Translations under genes and position numbers: made by a program
In this document: one piece after another, positions 17,322 through 26,763 of the stretch
Position numbering within the stretch: position 1 is the stretch's first letter
Layout of the letters: every line of letters begins with the position of its first letter
UHGV virus genome: UHGV-0211193
Reading direction: 5' to 3' (one strand)
Length of the DNA: 42,026 bases
DNA from: a virus
The notes under the pieces: model-generated
Seen by the model: only the letters and a program-made list of their open reading frames with translations
Database searches by the model: none
What the model was told of the DNA's origin: nothing

Positions 17322-18782
17322 TTATTGAACGTTAGTAACAGTTGTTTCAAGGCGCTGTACGCTTGAACCATCTGTGTAGAAGATTTTACGAATAGGCGTG
17401 CCGCGCTCGATACGAACCTGTGTTGAAGGTTGTTGAATCGAGATTGCCCAGCCTTTTGTGAATAATTGGCTCGCAGCATCAAAACCAGCTTCTTGATTGA
17501 TCTGGAACTTTTGAGCTTCAGACAACTCTACACCAGCTTGGATGCCACCAAAGTTTACACCTTGATTGATTGGATCTTGCAAATATGCGCGCTGGATAGC
17601 CTCACCAATTTGGTTGTATGGCACAGTGCCCTGAGAACGCAACATATTAATATCAGCAAGCTGAATTTGAGATGCCAAGAAGATCCAAAAGTCTTGGTTA
17701 TCAATCCATTTGAATTTGCCAGTTACAGCGCCAATCCCCGCCATTTGGAAGCGATCGTTTGCAGTAGCCCAAGCGCCATAGAACGAGCAACCTTTAGATT
17801 TAAGCAGATTCGCTTCATCTTCATCAGTTACTTCAGCAACTAGACCAGCTTGGCTACGGAACATTGTAGTGGTTCGCCCATTGGTTTCTTCATAGTTTAC
17901 AGATGCAGAAACACCACAGAAGAACATTGCTTTTTCAAATGCGCCATATAAAGGGACAATACCTTCAGTATTTTCACCAGCCCACACAGGGAAATCCAAG
18001 CCACTTTGACCCAGCCATAAAGGATCCATTGACCACACATAGAACTTGTAGCGTGAATTTTGCTGAGTCACCCAAGATGAAAAGGCTCGATATGCTGCTT
18101 CATCCATTGTATCAGGCGAGAATGTGAAGTTCACAAAGTTCTTGCTAAACTTTAATGCACGTTTTGCAGCAGTTTCAGCACTATCAGCAAGCACATCATT
18201 ATCAAGTGTAGCACCAGTCTCTTGTGTAAGCTTTAATGCAGCAGCAGTCGCGCCACTAGCAAAACTCAATGTTGAAGTTGCCCCAGTAGTACCCGATGTG
18301 ATGACAAAACCTTTTACAGTTGATAAGTACACACATGTAACACTTAAAGCAGTGGCAATGACAGCAGCAGCATCACTTAAACTATTAGCCGTAGACAGGT
18401 CGATAGTTCCAGATTTTTCAACACCATCTACAACCACAGATAAAGTACCAGTAATTGCTTTGATTTGTGCAGTAGTTAAGCCAGAAACATCGCCGCCAAT
18501 CAAAGAAGCAGAATCATCTTCTTTATTGTACTTGCTAATAAATAACGAATTTGGTCGAGTAGTAGCGCCATCAAAGCCATTAAAATAAATTACTGCGCCT
18601 TTGTAAATTTCGCTAGTCAAGCCGTAGTGCTGACCAACAAGTGAAGCAGTTGTGTATTCGAAATTAGGGTAAACCGCATCACTAACAAATAGCGTAGTGT
18701 TTAGCCCCAATGGATTTCCACCGCCACCAATTACGGCAGGGTAGACAGCAGCAATATTGCTAGCTGGAATTGAATCAAACAT
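17322..18782 (-). CDS. Tail sheath protein (contractile tail).
   Basis: 486 aa. RBS GGAG 8 nt before ATG 18782. Position before the tube gene. Confidence 0.65.
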   Translation of the reverse strand: MFDSIPASNIAAVYPAVIGGGGNPLGLNTTLFVSDAVYPNFEYTTASLVGQHYGLTSEIYKGAVIYFNGFDGATTRPNSLFISKYNKEDDSASLIGGDVSGLTTAQIKAITGTLSVVVDGVEKSGTIDLSTANSLSDAAAVIATALSVTCVYLSTVKGFVITSGTTGATSTLSFASGATAAALKLTQETGATLDNDVLADSAETAAKRALKFSKNFVNFTFSPDTMDEAAYRAFSSWVTQQNSRYKFYVWSMDPLWLGQSGLDFPVWAGENTEGIVPLYGAFEKAMFFCGVSASVNYEETNGRTTTMFRSQAGLVAEVTDEDEANLLKSKGCSFYGAWATANDRFQMAGIGAVTGKFKWIDNQDFWIFLASQIQLADINMLRSQGTVPYNQIGEAIQRAYLQDPINQGVNFGGIQAGVELSEAQKFQINQEAGFDAASQLFTKGWAISIQQPSTQVRIERGTPIRKIFYTDGSSVQRLETTVTNVQ

Positions 18783-19266
18783 TGTTTAACTCCGTTGTAA
18801 TGTCAGATGCATCTGCCACTATATTAACTGTTTTTTGATACTTTGTATTGTATTGCAATTCAAGGTCTAGCATAAAGCGCAATTCATACAAACCCGCCTC
18901 ATTCACAAAGCTTAAATCTCTAACCATTGGAGTTGAAAGCGGCACACAGTTTTGCAGAATATCCGTAGTATATATTGTATTCCATAGTGTTGACACTTGT
19001 TGCGCCCGATCAAATGCAGATTCACCGTAAAAATCTAGCTGCATGATTCCTTGCATGGAGTTAAAGATAATTTGTTGGTCGCCTTCATAAGCTACAGAAT
19101 GCTGGTCCAAGTGGCGACCATTCCTATAAGTCATGATAATGGCGTTTTTAGGGATGGGGTTTAAATTGTTGTAACCTTTGATAACAGTGGTATCTGTAGT
19201 CGGTAATTCAAATGTAGTTAGCAAGTAGCTACGCATATCAGCATAGAGCGTATTTAATATGTTCAT
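18775..19266 (-). CDS. Hypothetical virion protein (tail completion or neck).
   Basis: ORF overlapping the sheath start by 8 nt. Located between the connector and tail modules. Confidence 0.4.
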   Translation of the reverse strand: MNILNTLYADMRSYLLTTFELPTTDTTVIKGYNNLNPIPKNAIIMTYRNGRHLDQHSVAYEGDQQIIFNSMQGIMQLDFYGESAFDRAQQVSTLWNTIYTTDILQNCVPLSTPMVRDLSFVNEAGLYELRFMLDLELQYNTKYQKTVNIVADASDITTELNNV

Positions 19267-19766
19267 GGCGCAAATACCCCTTGTGTAAATGGCTTAGCTT
19301 CTGAGCCATTAAAGCCGAAATAACGCGCATCATGTGGCGATTCTTTACCAGTATTTTGAACTAGCACTTTTACCCAGCCACGATAGTTATTTTCACCCTC
19401 TACAGCAATTTCCTCCGACCATGACTCAATAACAGCTTTAACTTGCCATTCAGTCGGAAATTCTTCACCGTATGGATTCATAACAATGATTGACGTGCCT
19501 TTGTTCATGGCGCGTCTAATCGCTGGGATCATGCCATCTGCATAGATAGATAGAAATTGACCTTGTTGCCCAGCAAACCCCATATGCTTTAAATCTTCAA
19601 CACTCATCGATTGAGCCTGAATAATTTTAGGCTGTACTAAGTATTGCGGTATTTGATCACCAGATTCATTAACAGTGTATCCAGTGCTGACCTTTAACAA
19701 TGCCTCAATGTTGTTATTGACTGCACTTGTTAGCCCGTTTGCTATCTTTCTTAATGCCAAGCCCAT
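19263..19766 (-). CDS. Hypothetical virion protein of 167 aa.
   Basis: ATGA overlap with the downstream gene. There is no SD sequence before ATG 19766. Confidence 0.4.
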   Translation of the reverse strand: MGLALRKIANGLTSAVNNNIEALLKVSTGYTVNESGDQIPQYLVQPKIIQAQSMSVEDLKHMGFAGQQGQFLSIYADGMIPAIRRAMNKGTSIIVMNPYGEEFPTEWQVKAVIESWSEEIAVEGENNYRGWVKVLVQNTGKESPHDARYFGFNGSEAKPFTQGVFAP

Positions 19767-19767
19767 A

Positions 19768-19800
19768 ATAAAAAAGCCCCATGTGGTATGAGGCTATTTT
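19768..19800 (-). terminator. Terminator-like hairpin (AGCCUCAU-accac-AUGGGGCU, one C-A mismatch, followed by U6 on the minus strand) that abuts the start codon at 19766.
   Basis: 8-bp stem plus a plus-strand A-run at 19768-19774. This would end a transcript coming from the ORF-free region upstream. Confidence 0.45.
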
Positions 19801-19959
19801 ATCATTATTCATTGCTACTAGCTAAGCATGAATAAAATTCATCTTTTGCCAGAATAAGTGAATGATTTTAACTTTGTATTGAAAAATACTGAATAAATCA
19901 AAACAAACATGAAAAATTTTCATATTTAATAAAATTCAGATTTGATAATATTTAATAGT

Positions 19960-20200
19960 GCTTATAAGCAGTGTCGAACTAAGCAATCGGTTATGTGGTC
20001 GGGAATCGTAACGGCAGCGCATGGCTTAAATAATCCTGTACTGTGAGGGTCAAGCAAACAGGAATCTGTAGGAATAGTCAGTAATGGCGTGGTGAGCAGA
20101 GCTTGGAGTGAGTTAAATCACTGTATTCACCAACTCAAACAAGTTAAATAAGGTTTGAGACTTTTGATCGACAATCGGCTCCAGTAGCATAAGTTGATAA
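19960..20200 (-). ncRNA. Candidate structured non-coding RNA within a 590-bp ORF-free gap. Its strand is inferred from the flanking promoter-like motif and terminator.
   Basis: No ORF longer than 30 aa with an RBS on either strand. GC content is normal between AT-rich flanks. Several local hairpins are visible (for example CUCAAAC-12 nt-GUUUGAG). A degenerate promoter motif (20266-20283) lies upstream and a terminator (19768-19800) downstream. Confidence 0.3.
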
Positions 20201-20321
20201 AGTTAATATTCAAGATTGTTTTTTTATAAACAGTCTAAGGATGAATATTAACTTTTTTCTCTCCAATCTCACCTATAGCATTTATTTATATATATTATTA
20301 ATCTAATAGTGTTTAAAAATT

Positions 20322-20344
20322 AAAAACCCCATCTTTCGATAGGG
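20322..20344 (-). terminator. Rho-independent terminator after the coiled-coil gene (CCCUAU-cgaaag-AUGGGG followed by U5).
   Basis: Stem with one G-U wobble and a loop CGAAAG, followed by a T-run on the minus strand. Confidence 0.55.
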
Positions 20345-20354
20345 CTATTTAAGA

Positions 20355-21419
20355 TTAATACTTTACAGAAACGCAGGGAACTTGATTATTGGCAATCGCA
20401 GTAATGACAGCTTTTGCTTGACCCTCATCCAATCCAATTTCACAAAGCTTATTTAGAATTTCTCGATTTATAGAACGCATGTGTTCTTTATTTGCTAAGC
20501 GTGCTGCTTCCGCTTCCTGATCAGCTTTAATCCTTGCAGCTTGTTCAGCTTCAATACGTAAACGCTCAGCTTTAATAGCTTGTTGTTTTTGAATTTCAGC
20601 TTGTTTTGCTTGTTCAATTGCTTGCTGTTTCAACTGCTCTTCACGCAAGATTGCGGCTTCATGTTCTGCTTTAAGTCGAGCTTCACGCTCAGCAGATTCA
20701 CGAGCTAATTTTTCAGCCTGTTCACGCTCTGCTTGAGCTTTCTTTTCAGCTTCGATTCGTGCATTTTCAGCAGCTTGACGAGCAATAGCCTCATCACGTT
20801 CTTTTTGCTGGCGCTCAATTTCAGCTTGACGCAAACGCTCTAATTTAGCCTGTTCGGCTTCATATTTTTCACGTGCAGCCAGGGCAGTGCGTAGCTTTTC
20901 AAGCGTTTCAAATTTTGCAAGTTTTGCTTCTTGTTCGAATTCTTCAAAAGAGGAATCAACTTCTAATTTTTCAAGATCAAAGATATAACCCTTAATCTCG
21001 TGAGATTCTTTATTCAAGATGTTTTCACCATGCAAGCTATGAATGGCTCTAATTACCGCTTGATGCTTTGCAACACGATCATTTTCCGCTTGCTCCCATT
21101 CATCTAAAGGTTTGCGAATTTCATCACGCAATGCATCACACTGATCACGCCATGCTTTACGATCACGATCAATTACAGCAGCTTGTGCCTTAATACCAGC
21201 AACTAAGTCTTTACCATGATTATCTACAGCAGTTTTAGATTTACTTACTTTGTATGCTTGTGAAGCAATAGCATCACGGCCTTTTTTGGTTGAGACATCA
21301 GGAACAATTGATCGCGCTTGCTCAGCCATGCGATCAAATAAATCTTGAATGCCATTTTCTTTTTGAAAAGCAACGACAATTGCGCTTTGTTCAATAACTT
21401 GTAATTCTAAATCATTCAT
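20355..21419 (-). CDS. Highly charged alanine/glutamate/glutamine/lysine-rich coiled-coil protein of unknown function. ATG 21419 is preferred over the upstream TTG at 21446.
   Basis: Long EAEQAK/ERQA repeat region of about 150 aa. RBS AAGGGAG before ATG 21419. It has its own upstream promoter motif and a downstream terminator. Confidence 0.55.
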   Translation of the reverse strand: MNDLELQVIEQSAIVVAFQKENGIQDLFDRMAEQARSIVPDVSTKKGRDAIASQAYKVSKSKTAVDNHGKDLVAGIKAQAAVIDRDRKAWRDQCDALRDEIRKPLDEWEQAENDRVAKHQAVIRAIHSLHGENILNKESHEIKGYIFDLEKLEVDSSFEEFEQEAKLAKFETLEKLRTALAAREKYEAEQAKLERLRQAEIERQQKERDEAIARQAAENARIEAEKKAQAEREQAEKLARESAEREARLKAEHEAAILREEQLKQQAIEQAKQAEIQKQQAIKAERLRIEAEQAARIKADQEAEAARLANKEHMRSINREILNKLCEIGLDEGQAKAVITAIANNQVPCVSVKY

Positions 21420-21454
21420 TTCAAAAACTCCCTTAAAGTAAATCAATAATAATA

Positions 21455-21489: not shown

Positions 21490-21672
21490 TTATTTCAATG
21501 TCGTTTTCCACATTGTTTGATTGTAGATAAGTAATGCCTTCATATAATCGTCAATGCACTTCTTTAAATCCACGCTACCTAAGTGTTTTGCTTCCATATC
21601 CTTAAAATTATCAACAGCTTTCTCAGTTAAGTTGAATAACTTTTGTGAGTCTAAAATCATGATCATTCTCAT
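21490..21672 (-). CDS. Hypothetical small protein of 60 aa.
   Basis: ORF in the head-tail connector region with an ATGA overlap with the upstream gene. Confidence 0.35.
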   Translation of the reverse strand: MRMIMILDSQKLFNLTEKAVDNFKDMEAKHLGSVDLKKCIDDYMKALLIYNQTMWKTTLK

Positions 21673-22106
21673 AGTTTGCCCTCTACAATCTCATAAGTAA
21701 AAGAGTCATGCATTAGCATAGTATCACGCAACGGCGCCGAGAAGCCCTTCTTGGCAATAGTCGCAGGAGCATTTGGTGGCAATTCCCATGTCATAATCGA
21801 ATACTGAATATCACCTTGCATTTGCGTTCCAACCAAGCCCAATATCTTCTCAATCGAATAACCAGCTTTAGCGCCTTGTTGCGCTAGTTTAGCCCAGTTT
21901 TCCTTCTGCTCTTTTACAGTGGTTCTAATGAATGCACGGCTAGGGGTGTTCTTCCAGCTGTACTCATTCTTATACGCCACAGTAGCAACGTTTGTGCCAT
22001 CTGGATATTTAGACCCAGCCATAACACCAGCTTTAACGTATTGATCGTTTCTAGTTAAAAGCCTGTTTAGAGCTTGGTCTAGTGAGCCTTTTTTTTTGAT
22101 TGACAT
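21669..22106 (-). CDS. Hypothetical protein, possibly head-tail joining or tail terminator (145 aa).
   Basis: Position between the head completion and tail genes. Confidence 0.35.
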   Translation of the reverse strand: MSIKKKGSLDQALNRLLTRNDQYVKAGVMAGSKYPDGTNVATVAYKNEYSWKNTPSRAFIRTTVKEQKENWAKLAQQGAKAGYSIEKILGLVGTQMQGDIQYSIMTWELPPNAPATIAKKGFSAPLRDTMLMHDSFTYEIVEGKL

Positions 22107-25338: not shown

Positions 25339-26691
25339 TTAGCCGAAACGCTTTAAAAGGTCGCTTGTTTCTTTCGATGCAGGTCCAGCTTTAGGAGCCG
25401 AATCCATTGCAATGCCACCAGTTTTTTGAGCCTTAACCAAAGCAGCAAGACCAGCAGTGTTAATGCCTTTTGTCTCAATGCCTTTTTGTTGAAGCGCATA
25501 CTCATATACAGCATGATCAGATGAGAATCCATCCAAAGCGATTTGACCCACTAAAGGCTCGACTTCACGACCAGCTTTGAAGATGCTCATAATGCCATTG
25601 CGGATTTCTGCTGCATCCATAGCCATATCTTGAGCTTGTTCTTTGTCACGCTCACGATCTTTTTCTTCACGCTTTTCACGAGCTTTTAAACGCATAGCTT
25701 CAGATTCATTGTCTTTGTCGGCTTGAGTTTGTTTATCTTCCTCATCCTCTACAATTTCAATATCTTCTTCGTCTTCTGCCTTTTTGTCATCGTCTTCATC
25801 TTCGGCATCAGATTTTTTGTCATCCTCATCAAGGGCCAAAGCCTCATGAACTGCCATAATGGTTTTTTTGATGTCTTCGGCAGAATCCATACCTAATTGC
25901 TCGCGCAACTTGGCAAGGCCACCTTTCTTCATTACAATTTTTTTAGCCATTAATTGACCCTCTATTGAATCCGCAATAATCGCGTCACTTCCGATTCTAC
26001 CACGTTCGACAATAGCAACGTGATTACCGTGTATGTTACGCATAATACCATCATAAGGCACACCATTAAAAGTGCCTGCTGTCATATCCGCATCATAGGC
26101 GTAACCAGCAGATAATTCACGCATCTTTTCACTTTCAATATAGTCAATGCCTTCTTGGTCAAATACTCGCAAAGATGACCAAACTCGACCATCCTCATCC
26201 ATATCAACGTCAGTCCCAATTGAGCCAATAGTTGACTCTTTTTCTGAGTTTTCAGCATCAACAGGAATGTGACGAATTAATAATTGAAGGCCCTTAAAAG
26301 TATCCAAAGACTTGCGTAGTTCTTCTGGATCGCGCAATAGGTTGTATGTCTTATTTGGATCTAAGCCCAACTCTTTCCAGCGCGGAATAGTTGAACCCAT
26401 ATAAGGATTAACAGCAGCCTTAGTAATAATGGTTCGGTCAACAATCAAGTGGCCATTCTTATCTTTATGGCGTGCCGAATCCATTGCATGTTCTGGCTCC
26501 TTCTTTTCTTCTTCAAGCCATTGATCAAACAATTCTTCCAACTTATCAAAGTCAGTATCATTCGCCATTCCAGCTTCTTTATAAGCTATGGCAATCGCTT
26601 GATCTTTCGGTTTTCCTGAATCAATTAACTCACGAATGTTTTTATGAATAACATCCTGTGAGCTACCTTTAATTAGAGGCATTTTACTCAC
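25339..26691 (-). CDS. Putative prohead protease / scaffolding protein (Mu gpI-like fusion).
   Basis: 450 aa, with a highly acidic DE/K-rich segment (DEDDKKSDAEDEDDDKKAEDEEDIEIVEDEED) typical of scaffolds. Position before the capsid gene. Confidence 0.45.
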   Translation of the reverse strand: MSKMPLIKGSSQDVIHKNIRELIDSGKPKDQAIAIAYKEAGMANDTDFDKLEELFDQWLEEEKKEPEHAMDSARHKDKNGHLIVDRTIITKAAVNPYMGSTIPRWKELGLDPNKTYNLLRDPEELRKSLDTFKGLQLLIRHIPVDAENSEKESTIGSIGTDVDMDEDGRVWSSLRVFDQEGIDYIESEKMRELSAGYAYDADMTAGTFNGVPYDGIMRNIHGNHVAIVERGRIGSDAIIADSIEGQLMAKKIVMKKGGLAKLREQLGMDSAEDIKKTIMAVHEALALDEDDKKSDAEDEDDDKKAEDEEDIEIVEDEEDKQTQADKDNESEAMRLKAREKREEKDRERDKEQAQDMAMDAAEIRNGIMSIFKAGREVEPLVGQIALDGFSSDHAVYEYALQQKGIETKGINTAGLAALVKAQKTGGIAMDSAPKAGPASKETSDLLKRFG

Positions 26692-26763
26692 CTATATCAC
26701 TTTTCTTGATTATAGCAAGTAATGGTTATAAAAAAAGCCCCATTAAAGAGACTCTAATTTATG

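Follow-up and report, generated by a model that had tools for sequence, protein, structure and literature searches.

Evidence for a pseudoknotted plus-strand RNA, a probable divergent relative of RF02932, among the structural genes of an Obolenskvirus-like Acinetobacter phage

The closest described relative of the RNA reported here appears, from sequence, to be RF02932 (Betaproteobacteria-1), an orphan 'sRNA' motif from Weinberg et al. 2017; we found no literature on it beyond that discovery paper, the main text of which does not mention the motif (PMC5737381). The same paper describes GOLLD and ROOL as RNAs which often lie near tRNA genes and have no known function (PMC5737381). The put RNA of HK022, ~70 nt long and composed of two stem-loops, is a processive antiterminator which needs no dedicated protein and can serve any downstream genes (PMC9378689), and the template RNA of DRT2 is a pseudoknotted non-coding RNA (ncRNA) in which short direct repeats delimit a segment (PMC12039810). 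We found no literature on ncRNA of Obolenskvirus, and in an Obolenskvirus phage genome paper Infernal detects none (PMC12110203). Here, we analyse the UHGV virus genome UHGV-0211193 (42,026 nucleotides; hereafter, the window), which belongs to an Obolenskvirus-like Acinetobacter myophage with ~80%–85% identity to AP22, AB1, Cato and others, and in particular a 588-bp gap at 19767-20354, where an earlier note made without database searches had proposed a separately transcribed structured RNA. We are highly confident that a pseudoknotted RNA of ~300–330 nt, a divergent long-form relative of RF02932, is encoded in the gap on the plus strand. The family to which this divergent form of a known orphan motif would belong appears to be almost undescribed.

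No open reading frame (ORF) longer than 34 amino acids (aa) was found in the gap on either strand by ORF scan, in agreement with the ORF-free locus of the earlier note; the GC content of its core is normal, again as described there, and that of its flanks is low. The non-coding region matches 45 phage records, all from Obolenskvirus-like phages of Acinetobacter; none of them annotates an RNA there, nearly all leave the region blank, and a few carry 37-aa ORF calls. No ORF is conserved across the relatives, the longest ones spanning 22–51 aa at positions which are not conserved; variable columns are distributed 35/24/31 by position modulo 3, without three-base periodicity, and the relatives differ by indels of 1 and 2 nt, not by multiples of three. 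A hidden protein gene was rejected for lack of a conserved ORF and of periodicity. What stands of the original proposal is thus a structured ncRNA in 19960-20200, on the grounds of conservation in 45 records, absence of coding and covariation, whereas its strand, promoter and bracketing do not. The 37-aa minus-strand ORFs called inside the RNA in Ab31 and A72 are annotation errors. The parts of the RNA, with the evidence on which each rests, are the following.

19943..19951, plus strand: putative extended -10 promoter TG-A-TAATAT, with TG at 19943-44 and TAATAT at 19946-51 (sequence and alignment of relatives)
19957..20281, plus strand: conserved RNA body, comprising the predicted start, the core, hairpin H and the 3' motif with X' (covariation and fold)
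19989..20026, plus strand: P1 hairpin, outer stem 19989-19997/20018-20026, inner stem 19998-20001/20012-20015, AG bulge (matches the first hairpin of RF02932)
20035..20062, plus strand: P2 hairpin, stem 20035-20039/20058-20062 (two compensatory pairs, UA to CG and GC to AU; matches the second hairpin of RF02932)
20050..20106, plus strand: pseudoknot, P2-loop UCAAGC 20050-20055 with GCUUGG 20101-20106 (100% paired, one C-G to U-G change)
20065..20100, plus strand: helix UCUGU 20065-20069/GCAGA 20096-20100 (always paired, invariant)
20091..20131, plus strand: second crossing helix, GGUGA 20091-20095/UCACC 20127-20131 (all cells paired, three of five pairs double-changed, GGUGA/UCACC vs GCUAG/CUAGC)
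20107..20122, plus strand: P4 hairpin, AGUGA/GUUAAA loop/UCACU (four of five pairs double-changed)
20134..20159, plus strand: P5 hairpin CUCAAAC/GUUUGAG (all cells paired, four of seven pairs double-changed, CCGAAAU/AUUUCGG and CUAAAGC/GCUUUAG)
20177..20190, plus strand: 3' motif GGCUCC 20177-20182, then repeat copy X, AGUAGCAU, 20183-20190 (family-wide)
20202..20258, plus strand: long AU-rich two-part hairpin H, 20202-20218/20231-20252, then U6 20253-20258 (100% paired, one double change, one G-U to A-U)
20268..20281, plus strand: motif CUCACC 20268-20273, then repeat copy X', UAUAGCAU, 20274-20281 (family-wide repeat)

The structure was built by hand on an alignment of 15 phage sequences, all distinct, with a mean column identity of 96%, and consists of nine helices, two of them crossing, with 63 pairs. 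Standard pairs occupy 98.6% of the 944 pair cells counted in the 15 sequences, and double-sided changes affect 14 pairs (26 cells), a level reached in 0 of 500 shuffles; when the partners were slid by 1–3 columns as a control, 0–2 double-change pairs and 27%–41% pairing were left. Conservation and covariation in related phages, which the earlier note had named as a check, are both borne out. The double changes fall mostly in P2, the crossing helix 20091-95/20127-31, P4 (with the stem variants AGUGA/UCACU in the window, GGCAA/UUGUC in AP22 and CUGA/UCAG in Cato) and P5; in P1, the pseudoknot and hairpin H, variation is mainly from G-U to A-U or G-C. The helix 20065-69/20096-100 never varies, so that covariation neither supports nor refutes it. 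P1 carries the invariant loop and stem sequence UGGUCGG...ACGGCAGCG and is 100% paired in the 15 relatives; in 48 diverse members from outside Acinetobacter, a set pre-filtered for P1 pairing, it displays 198 double-change cells vs 70 in shuffles. The loop of P2 holds ACUGUGAGG in addition to the 5' strand of the pseudoknot. No tRNA or tmRNA was found in the window by ARAGORN.

Compensatory changes are visible already in the first alignment when it is read on the plus strand, and this strand is favoured because many pairs are G-U in every sequence and would be A-C if read on the minus strand; in the wider family described below, the plus-strand reading yields 204 G-U pairs vs 34 A-C among the matches listed. 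The folding energies are −84.8 kcal/mol (z −2.77) for the plus strand and −63.2 kcal/mol (z −0.98) for the minus strand, the latter no better than shuffles. A minus-strand RNA was rejected on the G-U/A-C asymmetry and the folding energy, and we consider it very improbable that, as had been suggested, a minus-strand transcript of 300–500 nt runs from the leftward promoter motif TGCTATAGG to the hairpin before the ATG at 19766 and acts as an sRNA or a tail-gene leader. Both terminator-like hairpins invoked in that model are real, and late transcripts that read through on the minus strand probably do extend across the region. However, the two hairpins, rather than bracketing the RNA as start and stop, belong to the minus-strand, converging late transcripts; TGCTATAGG lacks the final T of a -10 element and is not enriched (7 matches at ≤1 mismatch vs 8.5 expected), and the promoter scan detects no minus-strand promoter in the gap. 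The motif is the reverse complement of the plus-strand conserved 3' motif CUCACC-UAUAGCAU of the RNA. The RNA points away from the tail genes and so gives no support to a cis-regulatory leader that would control them; of the 12–15-nt direct repeats reported in the core, the relatives retain only UCGG. The closest look-alike of TGCTATAGG, at 26691, is a ribosome-binding site downstream of a separate promoter, TTGCTATAAT; the minus-strand stretch 26680-26730, which lies upstream of a 450-aa gene and holds a clear terminator, this extended -10 promoter, AGGTGAG as ribosome-binding site and an ATG, seems to have been the source of the motif.

All relatives carry TG-N-TATAAT ~7 nt upstream of the start of conservation, with TGCTATAAT or TGATATAAT at the promoter site, and in AB1 the promoter scan identifies TTAATA-16-TATAAT with an upstream TG (10 of 12 matches), which ends 7 nt before the RNA alignment. 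By its sequence, the window promoter at 19943-19951 would be of the host-type extended -10 class, and the RNA would start near 19957. Hairpin H followed by U6 may be a weak intrinsic terminator, missed by the terminator scan because it has fewer than three G-C pairs; the terminator of the converging 363-aa gene sits ~65 nt past it and may stop plus-strand read-through as well. The RNA would thus end either at hairpin H/U6 (~300 nt) or at the bidirectional terminator 20325-20346 (~390 nt). Upstream of the promoter lie the palindromes TGAATAAAATTCA (19829-19841) and TGAAAAATTTTCA (19910-19922), which may form a candidate operator; the first is kept in all relatives, which bear extra ATGAAT..TTCA copies, and operator-like TGAA-N-TTCA palindromes are not enriched across the whole window.

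An Rfam/Infernal search had also been named as a check in the earlier note. At the gathering threshold, none of the Rfam 15 families matches anywhere in the window; a permissive search of 19600-20500 (901 nt) matched RF02932 to 19988-20090 on the plus strand with 23.4 bits (E 0.039; threshold 49.4 bits), and the other families, including ribozymes, riboswitches, introns, RNase P, 6S and Y RNA, yielded at E up to 10 just terminator-driven or chance matches. The resemblance resides in the first two hairpins. P1 with UGGUCGG...ACGGCAGCG (window 19989-20026) corresponds to model positions 1–40, the loop sequences UGGUCGG, ACGGCAGCG and CUGUG agree, and P2 has a CUGUGRG loop, the 3' part of which pairs downstream; in the window, the loop ACUGUGAGGGUCAAGCAA pairs with 20101-20106. 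By contrast, the CUGUGGG...UGAAA loop of P2 in the model pairs with the loop of a third hairpin, whereas the segment that pairs with it in the window does not belong to a P3 loop. Model positions 76–120, which hold the GGUGGCGAAG linker, the P3 hairpin and the CGGGU tail, are missing from the window, where 18 unaligned nt stand for a 36-nt model segment, with only GCGU aligning at the end, and a longer region with extra helices (P3x, P4, P5) is found instead. Furthermore, the Rfam model ends before the GGCUCC/hairpin/CUCACC-X' part which is common to all members. RF02932 and the window RNA share a phage and mobile-island context, and bona fide RF02932 members are retrieved by the pattern described next; the window, however, comes from a phage of a gammaproteobacterial host (Acinetobacter).

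IMG/VR was scanned with an exact-match pattern derived from the loop sequences of RF02932 and the window, which produced many chance matches in GC-rich DNA and also sequences with flanking complementary stems. Scored against RF02932, four members on phage contigs reached 80–104 bits and three reached 31–37 bits, and these two groups bridge the window to the curated family. A second pattern scan, with one genome per species, listed at least 120 matches. After filtering for P1 pairing, at least ~80 distinct members remained, carried by phages, prophages and P4-like islands of Alpha-, Beta- and Gammaproteobacteria, Bacteroidota and predatory bacteria. Matches in Actinobacteria, Firmicutes and archaea lack the P1 stem and were dismissed as chance. 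Outside the betaproteobacterial group, no Rfam family is recognised at the member sites. Among the matches listed, 66 of 78 members have a pseudoknot of at least 6 bp that joins the 3' part of the P2 loop to a segment 20–40 nt past P2, with 58 distinct pairs of sequences in all, and GGCUCC occurs 115–190 nt past P1 in 53 of the 84 filtered members. The window has the P1, P2 and pseudoknot characteristic of the family, the pseudoknot partner lying 37 nt past P2. The pseudoknot, GGCUCC and the X/X' repeat were not part of the search pattern, yet all are common to the family. This is a broad family of phages, prophages and P4-like islands, of which only the betaproteobacterial short form has been catalogued, as RF02932. 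Several long-form members could plausibly form a helix which closes the RNA 5' end with the region before GGCUCC. In the window such a helix is predicted (UGUCGA/UCGACA), but it was rejected because the Acinetobacter phage relatives do not conserve it.

The 3' part of the RNA follows a family-wide layout, namely GGCUCC, a purine, X of 8–10 nt, a stable hairpin and YUCACC-A-X', in which X' repeats X. Among the matches listed, YUCACC-A-X' copies GGCUCC-R-X in 42 of 55 members vs 0.8% with X shuffled, and the hairpin between the repeats has a median z of −4.0 in the other members; the sequence of X varies from phage to phage. The window displays the same order (GGCUCC, R-X, hairpin H, YUCACC-A-X'), and its repeat, with 10 of 13 positions identical, falls just under the 7-of-9 criterion of the family count. 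In the RNA, the inter-repeat hairpin or downstream, complements to X/X' are no better than with shuffled X', except in a Paraburkholderia subgroup. In the CI RNA of P4 and the C4 RNA of P1 (Rfam C4), the RNA lies in the leader of a P4-like replication operon and is flanked by direct repeats which are complementary to its loop. Several members of the present family likewise lie between alpA and primase genes and have direct repeats, but the window RNA contains no complement to X/X' and has no match to Rfam C4. The logic of P4 CI/P1 C4, a ribozyme guide and an attenuator were all rejected for want of an internal complement to X/X' beyond chance. A Neo-like repeat-unit ORF was also discarded, the X-to-X' spacings not being multiples of three; in this respect the RNA differs from that of DRT2, a host defence system, from which it is further set apart by its phage location and, as from retrons, by the absence of an adjacent reverse transcriptase and of a conserved neighbour. 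In the short-form Paraburkholderia/Caballeronia subgroup (L201, L159, L161, L203, L213, L257), X is followed by its own complement, and X' can pair with GGAUGCUC over the start codon of the next ORF, an arrangement resembling a four-segment attenuator.

Small ribozymes are common in phage intergenic regions, and the pseudoknots, the invariant unpaired nucleotides and the hairpin flanked by two near-identical sites would suit a self-processing ribozyme which cleaves or ligates at two CNCC|R-X sites, excising or releasing hairpin H. Nevertheless, the RNA contains no guide complementary to X, matches no Rfam ribozyme or intron even at E <10 and has no exon context, and we regard such an activity as improbable. 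More broadly, it is conceivable, albeit speculative, that Betaproteobacteria-1 is the tip of a cross-phylum family of ~200–330-nt double-pseudoknot phage RNAs and that the repeat-hairpin-repeat module embodies an undescribed mechanism, the candidates being an RNA-only device for reprogramming RNA polymerase at operon entry, an RNA which primes replication by invading its own downstream DNA, and a ribozyme with two identical target sites.

The neighbours have no protein family in common, whether compared by all-against-all BLAST or, for the 133 nearest, by a Pfam census; the census returned just mobile-element proteins (AlpA, resolvase, Toprim, integrase, RPA) and flanking chromosomal genes, and the one RVT_1 among them belongs to a group II intron maturase. 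Locus L065 ends in a fragment of a group II intron. The RNA directly follows P4-alpha-like primase genes at L076, L085, L092, L137 and L150 and AlpA at five loci, several members lie between alpA and primase genes, and it precedes a primase-helicase at L151; elsewhere it is found in early operons by single-stranded DNA-binding protein (SSB) and recombination genes (L049, L132, L138) or ahead of terminase genes (L065, L145, L153). Sigma-70-like promoters abut P1 at L151 (TTGACA-17-TATACT) as well as at L152, L153 and L081. Orientation relative to the neighbouring genes is mixed across members, and the nearest downstream gene of at least 90 aa is, with a crude gene caller, convergent as often as co-oriented.

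Segment X of the RNA could pair with the template DNA at X', where the non-template strand repeats the sequence of X, and a persistent RNA–DNA hybrid nucleated at X' would make the transcript an origin-associated primer or R-loop RNA, in the manner of ColE1 RNA II and the T4 origin transcripts. Such a role would explain the repeat, which is highly non-random and yet lacks a complement inside the RNA, and it would agree with the frequent adjacency to primase, helicase, SSB, exonuclease, RPA initiator and AlpA islands, with the AT-rich tract after X' in the window and with the iteron-like arrays right after the RNA at L152 and L158. We nonetheless judge it unlikely: downstream tandem repeats are not enriched (8 of 77 vs 9 of 85 upstream), the element of the Acinetobacter phages resides in a structural module far from replication genes, and simple priming does not need a large conserved tertiary core. 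The array at L152 consists of 7.4 tandem copies of TAGTTACC directly downstream of the RNA (about 90–150 nt past RNA position +120) and that at L158 of 8.2 tandem copies of an 18-mer, also directly downstream; both look iteron-like and are not general in the family.

Around the gap, all flanking genes are on the minus strand, so that the RNA gene is antisense to the late structural genes, and PHROGs assigns them to a structural block (tail sheath, tail-terminator-like, head protein and Neck1), as the earlier note had recognised.

17322-18782, minus strand: tail sheath (PHROGs)
18775-19266, minus strand: tail-terminator-like protein (PHROGs)
19263-19766, minus strand: head protein (PHROGs)
19795-19775, minus strand: second terminator-like hairpin and T-run, context outside the RNA (terminator scan)
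20346-20325, minus strand: intrinsic terminator of the converging 363-aa gene (scan: 9-bp stem, four G-C pairs, T-run)
20355-21446, minus strand: 363-aa coiled-coil protein, function unknown, phrog_1376 (PHROGs)
21669-22106, minus strand: Neck1/tail completion protein, 145 aa (PHROGs)

Both minus-strand hairpins were recovered by the terminator scan. The T-run of the one at 19795-19775 ends 2 nt short of the ATG of the head-protein gene at 19766, which, as noted earlier, has no Shine-Dalgarno sequence, and alignment reveals no counterpart of this hairpin in the Acinetobacter phage relatives. As there is no promoter between it and the ATG, it seems that two terminators have to be read through for the tail-side genes to be expressed.

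In the relatives, the RNA has a Neck1-type gene of 145–168 aa to its left and a 74-aa plus-strand ORF to its right; specifically, a 60-aa gene and Neck1 are immediately to the left in AP22, AB1, Cato, phiAC-1 and IME-AB2. The 74-aa ORF (phrog_17670; L004 2898-3122, plus strand, with equivalents in L001, L003 and L007-L010) begins ~50 nt past X' and has no Pfam match; some records label it 'ribonuclease H'. In the window, by contrast, the 60-aa gene (21490-21672) and Neck1 (21669-22106) are to the right of the RNA and the 363-aa gene occupies the place of the 74-aa ORF, similarity to the relatives stopping just before the ribosome-binding site of that ORF, which is absent after 20306. Either the RNA module or the pair of 60-aa and Neck1 genes has been transposed, and the RNA element, given that its gene context differs between the window and the relatives, behaves as an independent module.

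Three genome records, MN516421 (Bphi-R2919), MN516422 (Bphi-R1888) and PP355976 (YNAF), start or end in the element, at window ~20200-20225, next to or within the AT-rich hairpin and at two different positions. These ends, and the direct repeats around an inverted repeat, which resemble some DNA sites, could be taken to indicate a DNA-level element, such as a recombination site, a packaging site or a genome end. However, the compensatory changes and strand-specific G-U pairs indicate RNA, two of the three records come from similarly named phages, other records, BUCT628 among them, are annotated as circularly permuted, and the breaks are probably due to assembly or linearisation rather than physical ends. 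A non-functional scar, such as that of a lost insertion which the earlier note had entertained, is rejected on the covariation and on the conservation across very different phages. We give either of these options, the DNA element or the scar, hardly any weight.

As to function, we lean slightly towards the combined statement that the window encodes a plus-strand RNA of an RF02932-related family and that this RNA acts in trans; the mechanism as such, an autonomous RNA acting through its own fold on a broadly conserved factor, is put forward tentatively. An autonomous role is favoured because the RNA has no gene partner and because the window keeps the RNA whole, with every invariant element, even though the downstream 74-aa ORF of the relatives is gone. 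On this model, host RNA polymerase would transcribe the RNA from the start of infection, and the two minus-strand terminators would stop late transcription and insulate the RNA gene from being crossed by it. The invariant loops UGGUCGG/ACGGCAGCG, ACUGUGRGG, GGCUCC and CUCACCA would then form a tertiary site binding a factor conserved in Proteobacteria and Bacteroidota, possibly RNA polymerase, a ribonuclease or another core machine, and the RNA would not be a regulator of one particular neighbour gene.

The main rival, which accounts for the data nearly as well and which we consider possible but less probable, is a cis-acting operon-entry leader, that is, an RNA which occupies the 5' end of its transcription unit and governs whatever follows it, the regulated ORF having been lost in the window. 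It could operate on elongation, by modifying RNA polymerase to read through hairpin H and later terminators as the HK022 put RNA does, or on translation, through the anti-Shine-Dalgarno-like CUCC and CACC motifs. Its appeal lies in the promoters directly upstream of P1, the positions at early-operon entries (L132 and L138, after a Cro-like gene) and late/terminase-operon entries (L065, L145, L153), the possible pairing of X' with a start-codon region in the Paraburkholderia subgroup and the U-run after hairpin H in Acinetobacter phages. Conversely, the downstream genes share no common family and are, as noted above, convergent as often as co-oriented; outside Acinetobacter phages, hairpin H has no U-run, and the 'operon' of the Acinetobacter phages is a single 74-aa ORF running into convergent late genes, which in the window is missing altogether. 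The put RNA, like the family, is promoter-proximal and phage-borne, and the positional logic is similar in several members, but it has no pseudoknot, its size and fold differ (PMC9378689), and there is no homology.

Several points weigh against an autonomous, trans-acting RNA or against its placement in the RF02932 family. Most viral members have a co-oriented ORF with a ribosome-binding site 10–70 nt past X', and the 74-aa ORF follows the RNA in 14 of the 15 Acinetobacter phage sequence types, which fits a cis-acting leader equally well; its loss in the window may have happened recently. A trans-acting mechanism leaves the X/X' repeat without a role. The score of the window is below the gathering threshold of RF02932, and the members were retrieved with an exact pattern and filtered for P1 pairing, so that the invariance of the loops and the percentage of P1 pairing arise partly by construction. 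Finally, the promoter, the start and the 3' end of the RNA are predictions from sequence.

With GOLLD and ROOL, which are roughly 580–800 nt long, the RNA has in common that it is large, ornate and associated with phages and prophages, but it is much smaller (~300 nt) and has no similarity to them in sequence or model and no Rfam match; in three viral contigs, L051 (814-888), L065 (9138-9211) and L099 (3858-3928), tRNA genes are located no more than a few kb from the RNA. Obolenskvirus phages are under development for therapy against Acinetobacter baumannii, and a strongly constrained RNA is present in 45 Acinetobacter phage records in which annotators leave its place blank or add spurious small ORFs. 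An orphan Rfam motif can now be viewed as part of a much larger family of longer RNAs which extends over several phyla without a protein partner. The role of this RNA class could be studied in a genetically tractable model, since the phage is virulent and the gene, of 300 nt, has clear helices for mutation. Among the neighbouring genes, the Neck1/tail-completion gene (145–168 aa) is mislabelled 'putative RNA polymerase' across the relatives (L003, L007-L010, L278, L280 and others).

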